From the NCBI GenBank assembly GCA_022574775.1, contig JACZRI010000003.1, forward strand, positions 34,308 through 98,307: a stretch of DNA of 64,000 nt. The letters are read 5' to 3'. Origin of the DNA: Patescibacteria group bacterium. GTDB taxonomy: Bacteria; Patescibacteriota; Minisyncoccia; Minisyncoccales; RBG-13-36-15. A model generated the notes under the pieces. It made no database searches. It saw nothing but the letters and a program-made list of their open reading frames with translations, and was not told the origin of the DNA. Both the position numbers and the translations under genes were made by a program. Of this stretch, positions 3,744 to 63,790 are shown piece by piece (position 1 is the first letter of the stretch; each line of letters starts with the position of its first letter).

Positions 3744-4760
3744 GTGTTTAAGGATAAGGTATACAATAAGAAGATGAAAAAGACGAGTTTGCAAAAGTTA
3801 CTACCAGGTTTAAAGAGAAATGTTTTACTAAAAAACTATACTACTTTTAAAATTGGGGGTGCCGCCCAATTTTTTTTTGTTGCGAAAAATAAAAAAGATG
3901 TAATGAAAGCAGTCCAAACGTCCAAAAAATTAAAGCTTCCATTTTTTATTCTAGGAGAGGGAAGTAATTTGTTGATATCTGATAGGGGATTTAAAGGGTT
4001 AGTTGTCAAAATACGAAATACGAAATACGAGATACCCCGCACCAGAACAAGTTCGGTGCGGGGCAGGCAAAACATTCTGGTTTATGCAGAAGCTGGGGTT
4101 TCTTTCCCTGTTTTGGTTAAGGCAACGACTGAATTGGGATTGTCTGGATTAGAGTGGGCAGGTGGATTGCCAGGTACTCTAGGTGGAGCAATAAGGGGTA
4201 ATGCAGGAGCATTTAGAGGAGAAATAAAAGATGTTATTTTGGAAGTTGAAGCTTTGGATGAAAAAGGTAATTTAAAAACATTATCTCGAAAGCAATGTAA
4301 TTTTTCTTATCGATCCTCTATTTTTAAAAAAAATAACTGGATTGTTTTATCAACTGCGCTAAAACTGGGAAAAGGAAATAAAAAATTGATTCAGTCGATT
4401 GCAAAAAGTCATATAAGATATCGAGAAGAAAAACATCCACTTGAATATCCTAATGCCGGCAGTATTTTTAAAAACTGTGACCTCAAAAAAATTCCAAAAA
4501 GACTAAGAGCCAGTTTTAATAAAGTTGTAAAGACAGATCCATTTCCATTAATACCTTCGGCCCACCTTATTTCAGAAGCTGGATTGAAAGGATTAAGAGT
4601 TGGCCAGGCAGAAGTTTCAACCAAGCACCCAAATTATATTGTTAATCTGGGTAATACTACAGCAAAAGATGTAATAAAATTAATAAATTTAGTAAAGAAA
4701 GAAGTAAAAGATAAATTTGGAATAGTATTAGAAGAGGAAATAAAACTTGTAGGGTTTTAA
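3744..4760 (+). CDS. murB: UDP-N-acetylenolpyruvoylglucosamine reductase MurB (alternative start at 3774); carries a 36 nt in-frame palindromic insertion at 4036-4071
   Basis: NYTTFKIGG and GEGSNLLISD FAD-binding motifs plus a MurB C-terminal domain. The PRTRTSSVRGRQ segment has no counterpart in reference MurB alignments. Confidence 0.8.
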   Translation: MFKDKVYNKKMKKTSLQKLLPGLKRNVLLKNYTTFKIGGAAQFFFVAKNKKDVMKAVQTSKKLKLPFFILGEGSNLLISDRGFKGLVVKIRNTKYEIPRTRTSSVRGRQNILVYAEAGVSFPVLVKATTELGLSGLEWAGGLPGTLGGAIRGNAGAFRGEIKDVILEVEALDEKGNLKTLSRKQCNFSYRSSIFKKNNWIVLSTALKLGKGNKKLIQSIAKSHIRYREEKHPLEYPNAGSIFKNCDLKKIPKRLRASFNKVVKTDPFPLIPSAHLISEAGLKGLRVGQAEVSTKHPNYIVNLGNTTAKDVIKLINLVKKEVKDKFGIVLEEEIKLVGF

Positions 4761-5070: not shown

Positions 5071-5081
5071 TATTTCTTTCA

Positions 5082-5114
5082 CCCCGTACCAGTTGGCGCG
5101 GGGTTTTTTTATTT
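5082..5114 (+). terminator. Rho-independent terminator
   Basis: CCCCGtaccagttggcgCGGGG hairpin followed by T9. Confidence 0.55.
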
Positions 5115-13976: not shown

Positions 13977-14014
13977 TTATCCTTCGATAAACTCAGGACA
14001 CTTCGACTTGCTTG
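13977..14014. repeat. GC-rich palindromic repeat, family B (core ATCCTTCGAnAAnCTCAGGACACTTCGACTT), truncated copy between secD and secF
   Basis: 37 of 40 nt identical to 25962-26001. Related copies lie at 53343 and 63676. Confidence 0.6.
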
Positions 14015-14052
14015 TAGAAATTTACAGTTTTCAGCAACAAAATACAATAATT

Positions 14053-19227: not shown

Positions 19228-20297
19228 AGGTACTTTCAGATTTTGGTTTTGAAAATAAAAAAGTTTTGATGAGATGTGATTTTGATGTTCCCCTCGATGA
19301 AAAGGGGAATATTTTAGATGACTTTAGAATTGAACGGTCAATTCCCACAATTGTATATTTAACGAAAAAGAATGCAAAACTTATTTTAATGTGCCATCTG
19401 AAAGGATTTGGCGACGAGATAGTGAGCGTAGCTCCAATCCAGAAGAGATTAGCGGAATACCTGGATTGCCCGGTAATAAAAGCTAAAAATTGTGTTGGCA
19501 AGGAAATTGAAGACTGGATTTCGAAAATGTCTCCAGGAGATATTTTGCTCTTGGAAAATTTAAGATTTTATGCAGGCGAGAAAGAAAACGATCAGGAATT
19601 TGCCAGGAATTTGGCAAAATTAGGAGATATTTATATTAATGATGCTTTTGCTACTTGCCACAGAAAGCATGCTTCAATTGTTGGAGTGCCAAAATATCTA
19701 CCATCGGCAGCAGGGTTGGTTTTAATGGAAGAGATAAGGATATTGTCTAAGATCAGGAAAAATCCAGTAAGACCCTTAATAGCAATAATGGGGGGTACCG
19801 TTCAGGAAAAAAAAGGATTAATGTTCGTGGAAAAGATGTCACAAATCGCAGATTTTGTTTTAGTCGGCGGCCTAATTAAAAAATCAATTGAAAAAGAGAA
19901 ATTTTCTTTTACCAGTCCTCAGAAAATTATCCTTCCAGTAAAAGAAGCTATGTCTGACTTTGATTTAGGGCCAGAAACCTTGAAAATTTTTAAAGAAAAA
20001 ATTTCTCAGGCAAAAACTATCTTTTGGTCGGGACCTGTGGGGAAGATTGAAGAAGAAAGATTTTCGAAAGGAACTATGGAAATTGCCCAGGCAATTATCA
20101 GCGCTTCGGCTTTCAAAGTAGCAGGAGGGGGAGCAACAATTGATTTTCTAAGAGACCATAATTTAGCTTCCAAATTTAATCATCTTTCCACGGGAGGGGG
20201 ATCTGCATTGGCTTTTTTAGCAGGGGAGAAATTGCCAGGTATTGCCGCCCTCGAAGAGGGCGAGCCTCGCTCAGTGAAACTGAGCGGGAAGCCTTAA
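19224..20297 (+). CDS. pgk: Phosphoglycerate kinase with an atypical C-terminal extension (EEGEPRSVKLSGKP) built from two GC-rich hairpins
   Basis: RCDFDVPLDE N-terminus, GGGA..DFL, and a ...GGGSALAFLAGEKLPGIAAL C-terminus. Confidence 0.9.
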   Translation: MKVLSDFGFENKKVLMRCDFDVPLDEKGNILDDFRIERSIPTIVYLTKKNAKLILMCHLKGFGDEIVSVAPIQKRLAEYLDCPVIKAKNCVGKEIEDWISKMSPGDILLLENLRFYAGEKENDQEFARNLAKLGDIYINDAFATCHRKHASIVGVPKYLPSAAGLVLMEEIRILSKIRKNPVRPLIAIMGGTVQEKKGLMFVEKMSQIADFVLVGGLIKKSIEKEKFSFTSPQKIILPVKEAMSDFDLGPETLKIFKEKISQAKTIFWSGPVGKIEEERFSKGTMEIAQAIISASAFKVAGGGATIDFLRDHNLASKFNHLSTGGGSALAFLAGEKLPGIAALEEGEPRSVKLSGKP

Positions 20298-21598: not shown

Positions 21599-21742
21599 TA
21601 TTAGCCCCAGAACCAATCCTCACTTCGTTCGAATGGTACGGGGCAAGCATTAATTATGGTTTAACTTGTTTGGAGTTTCCTATGCCCGCCCCGTATTTCC
21701 CGACTTGTCGGGATAGTACCGGGGTATATTAGTGTCGCGTTT

Positions 21743-25961: not shown

Positions 25962-26046
25962 GTTATCCTTCGACAAGCTCAGGACACTTCGACTTACTTG
26001 CACTGAGCGAGGCCTGAGCAGAGCGAAGGACGAGTCGAAGTGTGAC
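25962..26046. repeat. Family B palindromic repeat, full composite copy immediately upstream of and overlapping the murJ start
   Basis: CCTTCGacaaGCTCAGG...CCTGAGCagagCGAAGG and ACACTTCGACT...AGTCGAAGTGT form interleaved inverted pairs. Confidence 0.6.
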
Positions 26047-31370: not shown

Positions 31371-31442
31371 GCCAGTGTAGCTCAGCGGCAGAGCAGGGCT
31401 TTCGTAAAGCTCAGGTCGTCGGTTCGAGTCCGACCGCTGGCT
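31371..31442 (+). tRNA. tRNA-Thr (anticodon CGT); CCA not encoded
   Basis: Acceptor GCCAGTG/CGCTGGC, D-stem GCTC/GAGC, anticodon loop TTCGTAA, T-loop TTCGAGT. Confidence 0.85.
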
Positions 31443-52274: not shown

Positions 52275-52877
52275 ATGAAAATGAGAACAAAACACAGAAT
52301 CTTTATTGCTATTAATTTCCTTCCAGAAATAAAAAAGGAGTTCCTTTTTTATCAGAAGAAATGGGAAGATTTACCGGTTCGATGGACGAAAAAAGATAAT
52401 TTACACTTAACTTTGGTTTTTATCGGCTCTGTGGAGGATGAAGGTTTACTAAAAATCCTTGAAACTGCAAGGGAAGTAGCGAAAAATTCCCAACCTTTTT
52501 CAATACATTTTCAAAGAATTCTTCTTGGTCCGCCTGACAGAACTCCTCGAATGTTTTGGGTAGAAGGGGAAAAGAATCAAGATTTGAGTGTCTTAAAAAA
52601 TAATTTAGAAAAAGAATTGTCAGAGTTAAAATTAAGACGAGAGCTTCGAGAATTCAAAGTCCATATTACCATAGGAAGAATTAAAATATTAGAATGGCGC
52701 CAGCTTCAAAAGAAACCAAGAATTGAAGAAAAAATCTCCTTAACGGTATCGGTAAATTCTATTGAAGTTATGGAGAGTAAATTAAAACCAACTGGGCCGG
52801 ACTATTTTGTTTTAGAGTCAATCAAGCTTGGACCCCTTTCTTTTTCAAAAAAGAAAGGTGATCCCCCGGTACTATAA
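52275..52877 (+). CDS. thpR: RNA 2',3'-cyclic phosphodiesterase (ThpR/LigT, 2H family)
   Basis: Two H-x-T/S-x motifs (HLTLVF and HITIGR). Confidence 0.65.
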   Translation: MKMRTKHRIFIAINFLPEIKKEFLFYQKKWEDLPVRWTKKDNLHLTLVFIGSVEDEGLLKILETAREVAKNSQPFSIHFQRILLGPPDRTPRMFWVEGEKNQDLSVLKNNLEKELSELKLRRELREFKVHITIGRIKILEWRQLQKKPRIEEKISLTVSVNSIEVMESKLKPTGPDYFVLESIKLGPLSFSKKKGDPPVL

Positions 52878-53091
52878 ATCCTTTCGGATTTGAGTACGGG
52901 GCTAGAATACGAAATACATACGTTATTTTACAAGATGCTCGCCCCGTACCATGCGAACGCAGTGAGAATTGGTACTGGGGCAACCTCCAAAGAAAAAATA
53001 TAATGTTATCGCTCGCTCGGCGCCGGTAAGCCGTAGCTCGCGATATTTGTTCGAGACCTTTTTAAAAAAAGGTTCTCGAGCTCTCAAAATT

Positions 53092-54453
53092 ATGAAAAAG
53101 GTTCATTTCATTGGCATTGGAGGAATTGGGGTTTCTGCATTGGCCAGATTTTATTTGAAAAATGGGTGGGAAGTTTCAGGTTCTGATTTGGAAAGTTCAG
53201 AAACCATAACGGCGCTGGAAAAATTAGGAGTTAAAATTTTTGTCGGCAAACATAAAGTTAAAAACTTGAATCCTCAAGCTGATTTGGTTATTTACAGCCC
53301 AGCCATTAAATCGGACAATCCAGAGTTGCTGAAAGCTAAAAGCTATCCTTCGGCAAGCTCAGGATCCCGAGCAGCGTCGAGGGGTAAGTTGGAAGCTATC
53401 TCTTATCCTCAAGCTTTAGGCCAATTAACAAAGAAATATTTTACCATTGCTGTCTCTGGGACGCACGGAAAAAGCACAACCGTAGCCATGATTAGCCTGA
53501 TTTTAATAAAAGCAGGACTTGACCCAACTGTAATTTTAGGAACAAAACTTAAGGAATTCGGCAACAGCAATTTTCGAATGGGCAGCAAACTGCCAACTAC
53601 TAAATATAAACTGCCTTTTCTGGTGATTGAGGCTGATGAATGGGGAGCATCTTTTTTGTATTTTTGGCCAAAGATTATTGTTTTGACCAACATTGAGAAA
53701 GAACACCTCGATTATTATAAAAACTTAAACCATATTTTGAAAACTTATAAAAAATATATTTCCCATTTGCCAAAAACCGGCGTTTTGATAGCAAATAGAG
53801 ATGACCAAAATATAAAAAAAATTATAAGAAAAGAAAAAACGTCATTTTATTCTCTAAGCGATACGGAAGCAAAGAAATTAAAAAATATTTTGGAAGTTCC
53901 GGGAGTTCACAATATTTCTAATGCTCAAAGCGCCTTGACAACTGCCAGAGTTCTAAAAATCCCAGATAGGATCTCTTTTAAAGCTCTTTCAGAATATAAA
54001 GGAGCCTGGCGACGGTTTGAGATTTTTACTAAATATCTAGCAGCTCGGCCCTATACCTTAATTTCAGATTATGCTCATCATCCAACAGAGATAAAAGCTA
54101 CCCTTCAAGCCGCCAGAGAAAAATTTAAGGGAAGAAAAATATGGGCTGTTTTCCAGCCCCATCAATATCAAAGAACATATTATTTTTTTAAAGATTTCGT
54201 TAGAGCTTTTGATTTGGCAGACGAAATTATCTTAACTGAAATTTATCAGGTTACAGGAAGAGAGGAAAGAAAAATTTTAAGAAAAGTCAGCGCTAGAAAA
54301 TTAGCAGTAGATATTAGAAAAAGAAGGAAAAAAGTCCACTTTGTTAAAGATTTTGAGAAAATCCCAAAATTTATTAAAACAAGAGTCAAAGGAAAAGATG
54401 TTGTTTTAGTAATGGGAGCAGGAGACATTTATAAGATAATCGACTTTTTATAA
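53092..54453 (+). CDS. murC: UDP-N-acetylmuramate--L-alanine ligase MurC; carries an in-frame GC palindromic insertion at about 53343-53384 (SASSGSRAASRGK)
   Basis: IHFIGIGGIGVSALA, GTHGKSTT, and the Mur ligase middle and C-terminal domains. The track ORF extends upstream to 52969, but the likely start is MKKVHFIG. Confidence 0.8.
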   Translation: MKKVHFIGIGGIGVSALARFYLKNGWEVSGSDLESSETITALEKLGVKIFVGKHKVKNLNPQADLVIYSPAIKSDNPELLKAKSYPSASSGSRAASRGKLEAISYPQALGQLTKKYFTIAVSGTHGKSTTVAMISLILIKAGLDPTVILGTKLKEFGNSNFRMGSKLPTTKYKLPFLVIEADEWGASFLYFWPKIIVLTNIEKEHLDYYKNLNHILKTYKKYISHLPKTGVLIANRDDQNIKKIIRKEKTSFYSLSDTEAKKLKNILEVPGVHNISNAQSALTTARVLKIPDRISFKALSEYKGAWRRFEIFTKYLAARPYTLISDYAHHPTEIKATLQAAREKFKGRKIWAVFQPHQYQRTYYFFKDFVRAFDLADEIILTEIYQVTGREERKILRKVSARKLAVDIRKRRKKVHFVKDFEKIPKFIKTRVKGKDVVLVMGAGDIYKIIDFL

Positions 54454-60731: not shown

Positions 60732-61054
60732 AAAATTTAACAAAGAATCTTGACTGGAAAAAATTAAATGGTTTAATTCCGGTAATTGCCCAGGATTTTA
60801 AAACAGAAAAAGTTTTAATGCTCGGTTTTATGAATAGAGAAGCTCTAAAGAAAACTTTAAAAGAAGGAAAAATTACTTATTTCAGTCGGGTAAGAAAAAA
60901 ACTCTGGACAAAAGGAGAAACCTCTGGGCATTTCTTGCAAACTAAAGCAATTTGGGTTGATTGCGATAATGATACTCTTTTAATTAGGGTGAAAGCACAG
61001 GGTAATGTTTGTCACACCGGTCATAAAAGCTGTTTTTATAGGAAAATTCTATGA
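60728..61054 (+). CDS. hisI: Phosphoribosyl-AMP cyclohydrolase HisI (no fused HisE)
   Basis: LIPVIAQD...SRVRKKLWTKGETSGH...DCDNDTLLIRV. Confidence 0.8.
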   Translation: MKNLTKNLDWKKLNGLIPVIAQDFKTEKVLMLGFMNREALKKTLKEGKITYFSRVRKKLWTKGETSGHFLQTKAIWVDCDNDTLLIRVKAQGNVCHTGHKSCFYRKIL

Positions 61055-61935
61055 AAAAAGAAAAGAAAATAAAAATAGGAATTCCAACCAGATTTTTACT
61101 TCTACCAACTTTAACAATTTTTAGAGCTGCAGGTTACAATCTCGAAGTTGATGAGAAAACCTTTCAAGTAAAAATTGATGATCCAGAAATCGAATGTTTT
61201 CCGGGAAGAACGCGAGAAATAGCTGAAAGAGTGGGAGATGGTATTCTGGATGCTGGAATTTCAAGGAAAGATAGAGTTTTGGCAAGTGGGGTCAAAGTCC
61301 GTGAAATTTGCGACTTAGATTATAACAGAACGGAGACCTGGGAAAAGGGAAAAATTGTTTTAGTTGTGCCAAAGACCTCAAAGATTAAAACCTTGAAGGA
61401 TCTCAATGGGAAAACAATCATTACTAGATTTCCTGAAATTACGAAAAAATTTTTAAAAAGGCATAAAGTCTCAGCCAAGATTGAAACTTCTGATACTCCA
61501 AACGAGTTTCAGATAGGCAAATTAGTTGATGCAGGAGTCGAATTTACTTTGACCGGCAGCACTTTGGCGGCTAACAATCTAAAACCTCTGGCAGTTTTAA
61601 TGGAAACTTCGGCAATTTTTATTGCTAATGAAAAATCCCTTAAAGATAAATGGAAAAGAGAAAAGATAGAAAACTTAGCGATTTTACTTAAGGGAGCAAG
61701 GTTGGCTCAAGAAATGGCAGGATTGATGCTTCATGCCTCAAATAAAATGATGGAAGAAGTTCTTGAGATTTTACCAGCCCTGAAAAAACCAACCGTAACT
61801 CAATTAAGAGGTGAAAACTGGTTTGATGTTCTTACCGTTGCAAATAAAAAAGAGATAAGAAAAATTATTCCAAGACTTAAAAAAATTGGCTGTACCGACA
61901 TCATTGAATTTCCTTTAAATAAAGTTGTAATCTAA
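61051..61935 (+). CDS. hisG: ATP phosphoribosyltransferase HisG (long form), copy 1
   Basis: KIGIPTRF, DAGISRKD and the LTGSTL PRPP-binding region, plus a C-terminal regulatory domain. Confidence 0.7.
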   Translation: MKKEKKIKIGIPTRFLLLPTLTIFRAAGYNLEVDEKTFQVKIDDPEIECFPGRTREIAERVGDGILDAGISRKDRVLASGVKVREICDLDYNRTETWEKGKIVLVVPKTSKIKTLKDLNGKTIITRFPEITKKFLKRHKVSAKIETSDTPNEFQIGKLVDAGVEFTLTGSTLAANNLKPLAVLMETSAIFIANEKSLKDKWKREKIENLAILLKGARLAQEMAGLMLHASNKMMEEVLEILPALKKPTVTQLRGENWFDVLTVANKKEIRKIIPRLKKIGCTDIIEFPLNKVVI

Positions 61936-61941
61936 ATATAT

Positions 61942-62817
61942 ATGGCTTTGAAACTAAAACTTGGAATTCCCAAAGGATCGCTTCAAAATTATACTTTAAA
62001 AATATTTAAGGAAGCTGGATTTAATATTGATATCCCTGAAAGGGGGTATTTTTTAAAAATTGATGATCCGGAAATTGACTGCTTTTTATTGAGACCCCAG
62101 GAAATCCCGAAATATATTGAAAAAAGAAAATTAGATTTAGGCATCAGCGGCGATGATTGGATTTTAGAGTCAAGGGCAAAAGTAATTGAGGTTTGTGACT
62201 TGAAATACGCGAAACAAGAAATGAAAAAGGTCAAATGGGTTTTAGCAGTTCCTGAAAATTCAAAAATAAAATCTATAAAAGATCTTGAAGGAAAAATCAT
62301 TTCCACGGAAATAGTTAATTTGGTAAAAGACTATTTAAGAAAAAATAAAGTTAAGGCCAAGGTTGAATTCTCCTGGGGGGCGGCCGAGATAAAACCTCCA
62401 AGGTTTGCTGACGCCATTGTTGATATCACCGAAACCGGGGCTTCTCTCAAAGCTCATAATTTAAAAATTCTAGATACAATTTTGGTAAGTTCAACAAAAC
62501 TAATCACGAATAAGGAAGCTTGGAAAAATAAATGGAAAATAAAAAAAATAAAAGATCTGGCTCTTTTACTTCAAGGGGCTGTTCGAGGCGAAGGGGCAGT
62601 AAGTTTAATAATGCATGTTCCCGGGGAGAAATTAAACAGAATTTTAAAAGTTTTACCAAAATTAAAATCGCCGACTGTCAGGAAAACCGCTGGTCAAAAT
62701 TGGTATGATGTTATAATTTCTTGCAAAGAGGAAGAGGCTAGAGAATTAATTCCAAAGTTAAAAAGAATGGGCGGTCAAGGGATTGTTGAATTCCCAATAA
62801 TTAAACTGGTGCCGTAA
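61942..62817 (+). CDS. hisG: ATP phosphoribosyltransferase HisG paralog, copy 2 (tandem duplicate)
   Basis: Same architecture as copy 1: LGIPKGSL, LGISGDDW and TETGASL. Confidence 0.7.
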   Translation: MALKLKLGIPKGSLQNYTLKIFKEAGFNIDIPERGYFLKIDDPEIDCFLLRPQEIPKYIEKRKLDLGISGDDWILESRAKVIEVCDLKYAKQEMKKVKWVLAVPENSKIKSIKDLEGKIISTEIVNLVKDYLRKNKVKAKVEFSWGAAEIKPPRFADAIVDITETGASLKAHNLKILDTILVSSTKLITNKEAWKNKWKIKKIKDLALLLQGAVRGEGAVSLIMHVPGEKLNRILKVLPKLKSPTVRKTAGQNWYDVIISCKEEEARELIPKLKRMGGQGIVEFPIIKLVP

Positions 62818-63675: not shown

Positions 63676-63790
63676 GATCCTTCAACAAAGTTCAGGGTCG
63701 CCCTGAGTTAAATCGAAGGGCGATAAACTCAGGGTAACCCTGAGTCCTTCGGTCCTGAATTCAGGGTTGAAGGATAAAGTCGAAGGATTT
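63676..63790. repeat. Cluster of degenerate family B palindromic repeats (CCTTCg/CGAAGG and CTCAGGG/CCCTGAG arms)
   Basis: Several hairpins, for example CCTTCaacaaaGTTCAGGG-tcg-CCCTGAGttaaatCGAAGG and ACTCAGGG-taa-CCCTGAGT. Confidence 0.55.

Follow-up and report, generated by a model that had tools for sequence, protein, structure and literature searches.

The stretch of DNA analysed here, hereafter the window, spans 64 kb, is placed in Patescibacteria by its protein matches, and carries murC on the forward strand at 53092–54453 (probable ATG start at 53092, stop codon ending at 54453), which encodes a UDP-N-acetylmuramate--L-alanine ligase of 453 amino acids. Solved MurC structures match the protein, in which each of the three Mur-ligase domains is present; it is intact apart from an in-frame insert of 39 nt on the forward strand at 53347–53385, whose 13 codons (PSASSGSRAASRG) supply MurC residues 86–98. 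Directly upstream of murC lies a GC-rich element of 117 nt (52864–52980), here called family A, with the ends CCCCGGTAC...GTACTGGGG, which provides the last codons of ligT (PPVL) together with its stop codon; an inverted copy of family A is found at 21604–21650, and more distant relatives have no spacer between the neighboring genes ligT and murC. In the relative L001, the 52864–52980 element is cleanly missing between identical flanks (GGTGATC/CAACCTCC), with no duplication. Related GC-rich palindromic elements are therefore currently mobile in this lineage, and because the family A neighbor of murC is polymorphic between 94%-identical strains, their mobility is ongoing and can be traced in metagenomic populations.

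The segment at 53347–53385 is an insertion in murC, since it is missing from nearly all members of an alignment of 120 orthologues, as the earlier note on this DNA had anticipated when it described a palindromic repeat inserted in the gene. The spacing between the invariant NPE and SYP motifs is exactly 15 residues in 86 of the 120 orthologues and differs from 15 in the other 34, compared with 28 residues in the window, and a 13-codon insert at this site occurs only in the two closest relatives (L001 and L002). AKSYKLxxKSYP in relatives corresponds to AKSY-PSASSGSRAASRG-KLEAISYP in the window, and the empty-site allele (P0121/L241) has AKSY/KLKAISYP. The same contrast is visible in the DNA, in which the empty site of L241 (AAA AGT TAC/AAG CTA AAA GCT ATC AGT TAC CCT) corresponds to the filled site of the window (AAA AGC TAT/39 nt/AAG TTG GAA GCT ATC TCT TAT CCT), and the close orthologues P0121 and P0004 are without any insert. 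An assembly artefact is excluded, since four contigs of different assemblies all encode an identical MurC protein. A protein search with the insert region as the query returned short fragments only, all without the insert and P0121 among them; a metagenome scan for further insert-bearing murC alleles gave two chance matches only, and no empty/filled polymorphism of the murC copy was found among near-identical strains.

The limits of the insert were set by the 120-orthologue alignment and by codon alignment with relatives and the empty sites of L003 and L241, and they are ambiguous by 1 nt, 53346–53384 being also possible. The 42-mer at 53343–53384 reported previously was confirmed at that exact position, is unique in the window and lies inside the murC ORF; the insert is in frame and its length a multiple of three (39 nt, 13 codons), as had been claimed, and the peptide given for it has to be moved by one residue to the true frame, K-S-Y-PSASSGSRAASRG-K-L. 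The insert has 67% GC against 36.7% for the whole window, and the local GC content rises to 55% at 53320–53409, with about 30–40% on either side. Its left arm (53346–53364, forward strand, TCCTTCGGCAAGCTCAGGA) is a G variant, at core position 8, of a core sequence that recurs across phyla (see below), and its right arm (53366–53384, forward strand, CCCGAGCAGCGTCGAGGGG), which starts 1 nt after the left arm, is a degenerate inverted copy of that core, the two arms forming terminal inverted repeats. The region 53330–53400 is predicted to fold at −27.9 kcal/mol (z = −3.3), with none of 200 shuffles equally good, and the 39-nt insert alone at −17.9 kcal/mol (z = −2.3). The hairpin is imperfect, consisting of two 6-bp helices around a 5 × 6 internal loop, and the earlier description of it as near-perfect was thus overstated. 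Read from the sequence, the 39-mer is free of stop codons in five of its six frames, including the one in which it is translated. No T-run or U-tract follows the hairpin (TAAGTTGGAAGC comes next), so it is not an intrinsic terminator.

Around the insert, AAGCTATC occurs twice, at 53340–53347 and 53393–53400, and these copies had been taken to suggest a target duplication. Their spacing of 53 nt is not divisible by 3, and the second copy, lying 7 nt past the right edge of the insert, does not abut it. What refutes the duplication is that both copies belong to a KSY...ISY quasi-repeat of the host sequence, found in the empty allele of L241 as well (AAA AGT TAC AAG CTA AAA GCT ATC AGT TAC, KSY..AISY). 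A comparison of this empty site with the filled site of the window reveals no flanking duplication longer than 1 nt.

With respect to the MurC fold, the insert is an alignment gap relative to the Haemophilus influenzae MurC structure 1GQQ, just before the strand KRIPVIQR. In an AlphaFold2 model built from 62 sequences (mean pLDDT 90.5), residues 86–98 are predicted to form a coil between helix 77–84 and strand 101–104, with pLDDT falling below 50 at residues 93–95. The insert lies in a permissive surface loop of MurC; structural mapping had been proposed as a check. The P-loop, GTHGKST, had been said to follow immediately; the insert is indeed upstream of it, but about 30 residues away, in domain 1. 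The same NPE–SYP loop (residues ~83–100, P0001–P0120) is an indel hot spot among orthologues. About 20 of them have a form with five additional residues; an example is KLQTTNYKLQIL, encoded in L005 by a directly duplicated stretch of DNA, CTACAAACTACA-GG-CTACAAACTACA; in P0053, another GC-rich palindrome is nested in the loop, and P0107 has a Pro-rich stretch there.

Within the window, the 19-mer ATCCTTCGACAAGCTCAGG is matched with at most three mismatches at 25965 (0 mismatches), 53345 (1) and 13979 (2), where 0.02 such matches would be expected by chance. One base separates the left arm of the insert from the 25965 copy, and two more from the 13979 copy; in the right arm, about 14 of 17 positions agree with CCTGAGCAGAGCGAAGG (26013–26029), the corresponding arm of the copy at 25965, so that both arms bear out the claimed nucleotide kinship with intergenic copies. 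Nearly all orthologues are without the segment and both its arms resemble intergenic repeats, whereas a segment conserved in relatives and unrelated to those repeats is what the earlier note had named as speaking against its reading. At the level of sequence, the insert can be assigned with confidence to this repeat family, family B. The full intergenic copy (25965–26043, forward strand) lies between the RNase P RNA gene and murJ, and its arms follow the interleaved order A-B-A'-B', namely, the core, B (ACACTTCGAC), an inverted core arm, and B' (GTCGAAGTGT). Relative to this element, the murC insert reads as a compact form without the central 29 nt. The A–A' and B–B' pairings of the full copy are compatible with each other only as a pseudoknot, and its minimum free energy fold comprises B–B' and part of A–A'. 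A half copy with the core and B arm only is located between secD and secF (13979–14016, forward strand). Near-identical left-arm copies had also been claimed for 63676, a claim that stands for 25965 and 13979 but not for this site, which is beyond three mismatches and is a degenerate relative: at 63676–63788 (forward strand), degenerate units resembling the core are clustered, their orientation alternating, with a very stable predicted fold of −61.6 kcal/mol (z = −6.6), and a terminator-like hairpin follows. The 64-kb window thus holds three core copies and one degenerate cluster.

Several other features of the window were recorded in passing. A GC-rich palindrome, CCCCGCACCAGAACAAGTTCGGTGCGGGG, lies at 4033–4069 inside the murB ORF (3744–4760), in the region of the FAD-binding domain, and a similar hairpin is found at 5074–5105. 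The C-terminal tail of pgk, ...ALEEGEPRSVKLSGKP*, is encoded by two hairpins rich in GC, GCCCTCGAAGAGGGC and CGCTCAGTGAAACTGAGCG, which overlap the gene at its 3' end (20245–20293). The core resembles the anticodon arm of tRNA-Thr (31399–31415) at 14 of 17 positions, with three mismatches, which is probably a coincidence. Downstream of hisA, hisH, hisF, and hisI, two adjacent full-length hisG-like genes, each with HisG and HisG_C, occupy 61051–62817.

The core itself is not confined to the window. A scan of 596 Gb, with one genome per species and the pattern TCCTTCGRBAARCTCAGG, found at least 120 loci, and in its 19-nt form the core can be written TCCTTCG[A/G][C/T]AA[G/A]CTCAGGA, to which 53346–53364 is an exact match. 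Among the matches listed, the core is found almost unchanged in more than 15 phyla, and the 18-mer G variant of the insert left arm recurs identically in other phyla in 11 of 129 cases. The hosts among the matches listed include Sphingomonadales, Caulobacterales, Rhizobiales, Burkholderiales, Chloroflexota, Acidobacteriota, and Bacteroidota, with further occurrences in Verrucomicrobiota, Planctomycetota, Nitrospirota, Elusimicrobia, Dependentiae, Eremiobacterota, and at least six Patescibacteria, and the GC content of the host loci listed ranges from 30% to 73%. It should be noted that the scan count alone (at least 120) is near a back-of-the-envelope chance expectation of about 200 in 596 Gb, which assumes uniform base composition. 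The contexts of the matches are not those of chance. With positions numbered from 0 at the first T, such that position 18 is the 19th and last base of the core and one past the 18-nt pattern, conservation among the matches listed extends outside the pattern to A at position 18 (127 of 129), G at +20 (101 of 129) and A at +21 (98 of 129), giving an extended consensus C-R-TCCTTCGACAAGCTCAGGA-Y-G-A, of which TCCTTCGACAAGCTCAGGA is the core. The murC copy fits Y with T at +19 and has C and C at +20 and +21 against the consensus G and A. In viral contigs, the 19-nt pattern was matched 114 times, compared with 0 and 0 for two composition-matched control patterns.

The bases flanking the core tend to pair with each other, with a score of 2.48 against 1.76 ± 0.07 for permuted flanks. 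In approximately 35 of 233 copies among the matches listed, a closing stem of at least 6 bp, varying in sequence, presents the core as a hairpin loop, most copies having no extended stem; such a hairpin is terminator-like in L071 and L105. The closing pairs of the murC copy are limited to A–T plus TCC/GGA. An inverted partner lies within 120 nt in 24 of 242 copies among the matches listed, and the murC copy has a degenerate one 1 nt downstream. In addition, tandem micro-expansions of the core occur in L011, L044, L053, and L086. In Rfam 15, no family matched the window copies at gathering thresholds, nor did any reach E ≤ 0.1 at eight loci that carry canonical copies. Among the papers searched, none had the core DNA strings or the encoded peptides, and broader searches yielded only the REP, RPE, and MITE literature; a plasmid BLAST with the canonical two-hairpin element gave three matches, the query being too short for good sensitivity. 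By inspection, the core fits neither Tn3 inverted repeats nor MOBP nick sites, and it fits neither the hammerhead core nor 16S h44–45.

Individual occurrences of the core deserve mention in their own right. In L023 (~4485–4530), the core abuts a truncated tRNA 3' half, which was judged a probable coincidence, and the core located 18 nt upstream of the RNase P RNA in L070 (2433–2450) is probably a coincidence as well. About 15–20 core-bearing viral contigs (L136, L142, L154, L156, L174, L185, L192, and others) share one head-tail module, composed of a terminase, an S78 prohead protease, an HK97-type capsid, and a tail tube. In the viral contig L140, the core is in frame in the tail of the protease (..ASFDKLRMPED..).

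The core also lies in frame in cellular genes. In the galU gene of a Dehalococcoidia member (L020), a forward core, TAT/CCT TCG ACA AGC TCA GGA CAA, adds seven residues, and a reverse core, CCT GAG CTT GTC GAA AGA, adds another seven. The two sites, 835–852 and ~986–1003, are 150 nt apart, in opposite orientations and of 21 nt each, and both are gaps relative to PDB 5j49. These two separate 21-nt in-frame insertions suggest that the core of about 21 nt may be an insertion unit alone. An NRPS-PKS gene of Desulfobacterales (L086) has the core in a PKS linker, where it is read as PSTSSG(TSSG)n after the KS motif GGTNAHVVLEA, and further copies lie in carA-like (L124) and nuoE-like (L122) ORFs. 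The murC insert, galU, and the PKS gene all use the same frame of the core (PSxSSG). Given that the core is almost unchanged across distant phyla and viral contigs, unlike lineage-specific REPs, horizontal spread or a universal recognition system is pointed to. It may tentatively be proposed, with more doubt than confidence, that a mini-element of ~19–24 nt, C-R-TCCTTCGACAAGCTCAGGA-Y-G-A, nearly invariant and so far undescribed, is represented in murC by the left arm of the insert. Such an element would occur in more than 15 phyla and in viral contigs at any GC content, sometimes as a hairpin loop, with tandem expansion and with in-frame units of 21 or 39 nt. If true, machinery for its recognition or mobilisation would have to be very widespread.

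The two closest relatives differ in what has become of the insert. L001, with 93% protein and 93.7% nucleotide identity, has kept it with 37 of 39 nt identical. L002, with 86% protein identity, carries at the same codon position (~393–431 of L002) a different 39-nt palindrome, CCGCCCGCCATGACTTCGTCAGGCGAAGTCGGGCGCGGT, predicted to fold at −22.9 kcal/mol (z = −3.6). L002 agrees with the window at only 18 of 39 positions in the insert, against 88.4% outside it and 79.4% at third codon positions, and the probability of so few matches is ~3e-6 under the third-position rate. Because the L002 palindrome differs to this extent at the same codon, one vertically inherited insertion is an insufficient explanation. 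Candidate explanations are that the insertions were independent and met at a hot spot, that conversion put the sequence of another copy in place, or that palindromes evolve rapidly in a way specific to them. Different palindromes of equal length at the same codon in sister lineages make palindrome turnover or site targeting testable. That the inserts of the window and L001, on the one hand, and of L002, on the other, are independent insertions or the result of gene-conversion replacement at a mutational hot spot is a possibility of some weight, although it is the less probable course: in addition to the drop in identity (18/39 inside against 88% outside) and the unrelated inserts in the same loop (the P0053 palindrome, the P0107 Pro-rich stretch and the ~20 forms with five extra amino acids), the L002 insert has CTTCG/CGAAG and TCAGG blocks like those of the B arms at 25984 and 26034. 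If the insertions were independent, however, the equal length and codon position in sisters would be a coincidence; 18/39 is somewhat above the ~28% expected for GC-rich random sequence, and no donor of the L002 palindrome was found in 2 Mb of sampled loci.

Alternatively, the hairpin could be a nucleic-acid element selected in the murC message for pausing, processing, or stability, in which case the palindrome rather than its sequence would be kept. The L002 palindrome, different in sequence, identical in codon position and length and more stable in fold (−22.9 kcal/mol, z = −3.6), would be expected on this account, as would the maintenance of a GC-rich sequence in a 37% GC genome. Against it, the L001 insert has only two substitutions, each synonymous and each weakening the stem (from −17.9 to −12.8 kcal/mol, z = −0.4), which speaks against the hairpin being under strong selection there; moreover, most orthologues, including the close P0121 and P0004, do without an insert, the hairpin with no U-tract behind it is not an intrinsic terminator, and the same core lies in frame in other genes elsewhere. 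Selection on the hairpin is thus improbable. Local slippage or duplication within murC, with a chance likeness to the intergenic copies, could draw on the host quasi-repeat (KSY..ISY) at the site and on the direct duplications seen there in other orthologues (L005), but it is effectively refuted by the 19/19 match of the left arm to the core variant of other phyla and the match of the right arm to the 25965 copy, and the insert has 67% GC inside AT-rich flanks and duplicates no part of the neighboring murC sequence.

The reading that accounts best for these observations, and which is held to be likely, is that the insert is a recent compact copy of a palindromic repeat in murC, a piece of near-neutral selfish DNA that a permissive loop accommodates. 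On this view, a miniature GC-rich palindromic repeat would have entered murC in a recent ancestor as a compact copy with two arms, and it would have survived because its length is a multiple of three without a stop in frame and because it landed in an indel-tolerant surface loop of domain 1, between helix 77–84 and strand 101–104. There it would be translated as a flexible loop rich in Ser, Gly, Ala, and Arg and carried along as near-neutral selfish DNA. Weighing against this reading are the different palindrome of L002, the bases at +20 and +21 that depart from Y-G-A, the failure to find a filled/empty polymorphism of the murC copy among near-identical strains, and the negative search for a mobilising enzyme in the 64-kb window. 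Two routes of movement may be considered: an HUH/Y1-type enzyme could act on a single-stranded hairpin intermediate, as in IS200/IS605 and REP-RAYT, or copies could be made from another genomic copy by template switching. We infer that copies move by one or the other, as both would fit the lack of a target duplication and the conserved loop in variable stems of some copies. A Pfam scan of the 60 ORFs in the 64-kb window revealed no transposase or RAYT, and ORF clustering within 2.5 kb of 240 core copies revealed no recurrent enzyme gene, the only recurring feature being a phage or GTA-like head-tail module. As for the earlier note, its reading holds for the insertion itself, its frame, its kinship with a repeat family, and its position upstream of the P-loop, but not for the target duplication, the immediate vicinity of the P-loop, and the 63676 copy.

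HUH endonucleases recognise hairpin origins and ends, such as IS200/IS605 ends and rolling-circle origins. By analogy, the core may be likened to such hairpins in that it can sit in the loop of a variable but complementary stem and appears to insert without duplication; unlike for HUH systems, no cognate enzyme, cleavage site, or target motif has been identified for it. To our knowledge, in-frame palindromic insertions in essential genes are textbook material for Rickettsia only, apart from scattered REP cases, and the Rickettsia work is reportedly to be credited to Ogata et al. (2000). For a Patescibacterium, with its reduced and AT-rich genome, the murC insert provides a clean in-frame case in which filled and empty sites are known along with the place of the insert in the protein structure. 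Two things about it are surprising: a core that is shared across phyla, and sister lineages whose palindromes have been swapped at one site with no change in length.

Among known systems, Rickettsia palindromic elements (RPEs) are palindromic repeats of ~100–150 bp, described from Rickettsia only, that lie between genes and also in frame in unrelated housekeeping genes, where they add an extra peptide, conserved in sequence, at places that the fold tolerates (PMC10969869). The murC insert resembles them in being in frame in a housekeeping ORF and in adding a peptide at a permissive site, but differs in its length of 39 nt, in its Patescibacterium host, and in a core that recurs across phyla. 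MITEs (Correia, ERIC, RUP, and others) are non-autonomous elements, usually of 50–500 bp, with terminal inverted repeats and occasional in-frame fusions, and they make target-site duplications (PMC10969869). The insert shares the terminal inverted repeats, whereas its 39 nt (21 nt in L020 galU) and the lack of a target-site duplication set it apart. REPs and REPINs are imperfect palindromes of 20–40 nt, often in inverted pairs and inserted with no target duplication; REPs usually lie downstream of genes and sometimes inside ORFs, and have a terminal GTAG or CGTC tag (PMC3733652). The insert is likewise a short (39 nt) imperfect palindrome with no target duplication, but it ends in CCTT.../...GGGT without a terminal GTAG or CGTC, CGTC being internal only (GCAGCGTCGAGG). 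Unlike lineage-specific REP families, its core is nearly invariant in genomes of 30–73% GC from more than 15 phyla among the matches listed. REP/REPIN families are further marked by a high copy number, mostly outside genes, and by a cognate RAYT (Y1 transposase) gene; the 64-kb window has three core copies and one degenerate cluster, and no RAYT gene among the 60 ORFs scanned. While a member of neither group, the murC insert finds its closest functional parallels in Rickettsia palindromic elements and intragenic REPs.
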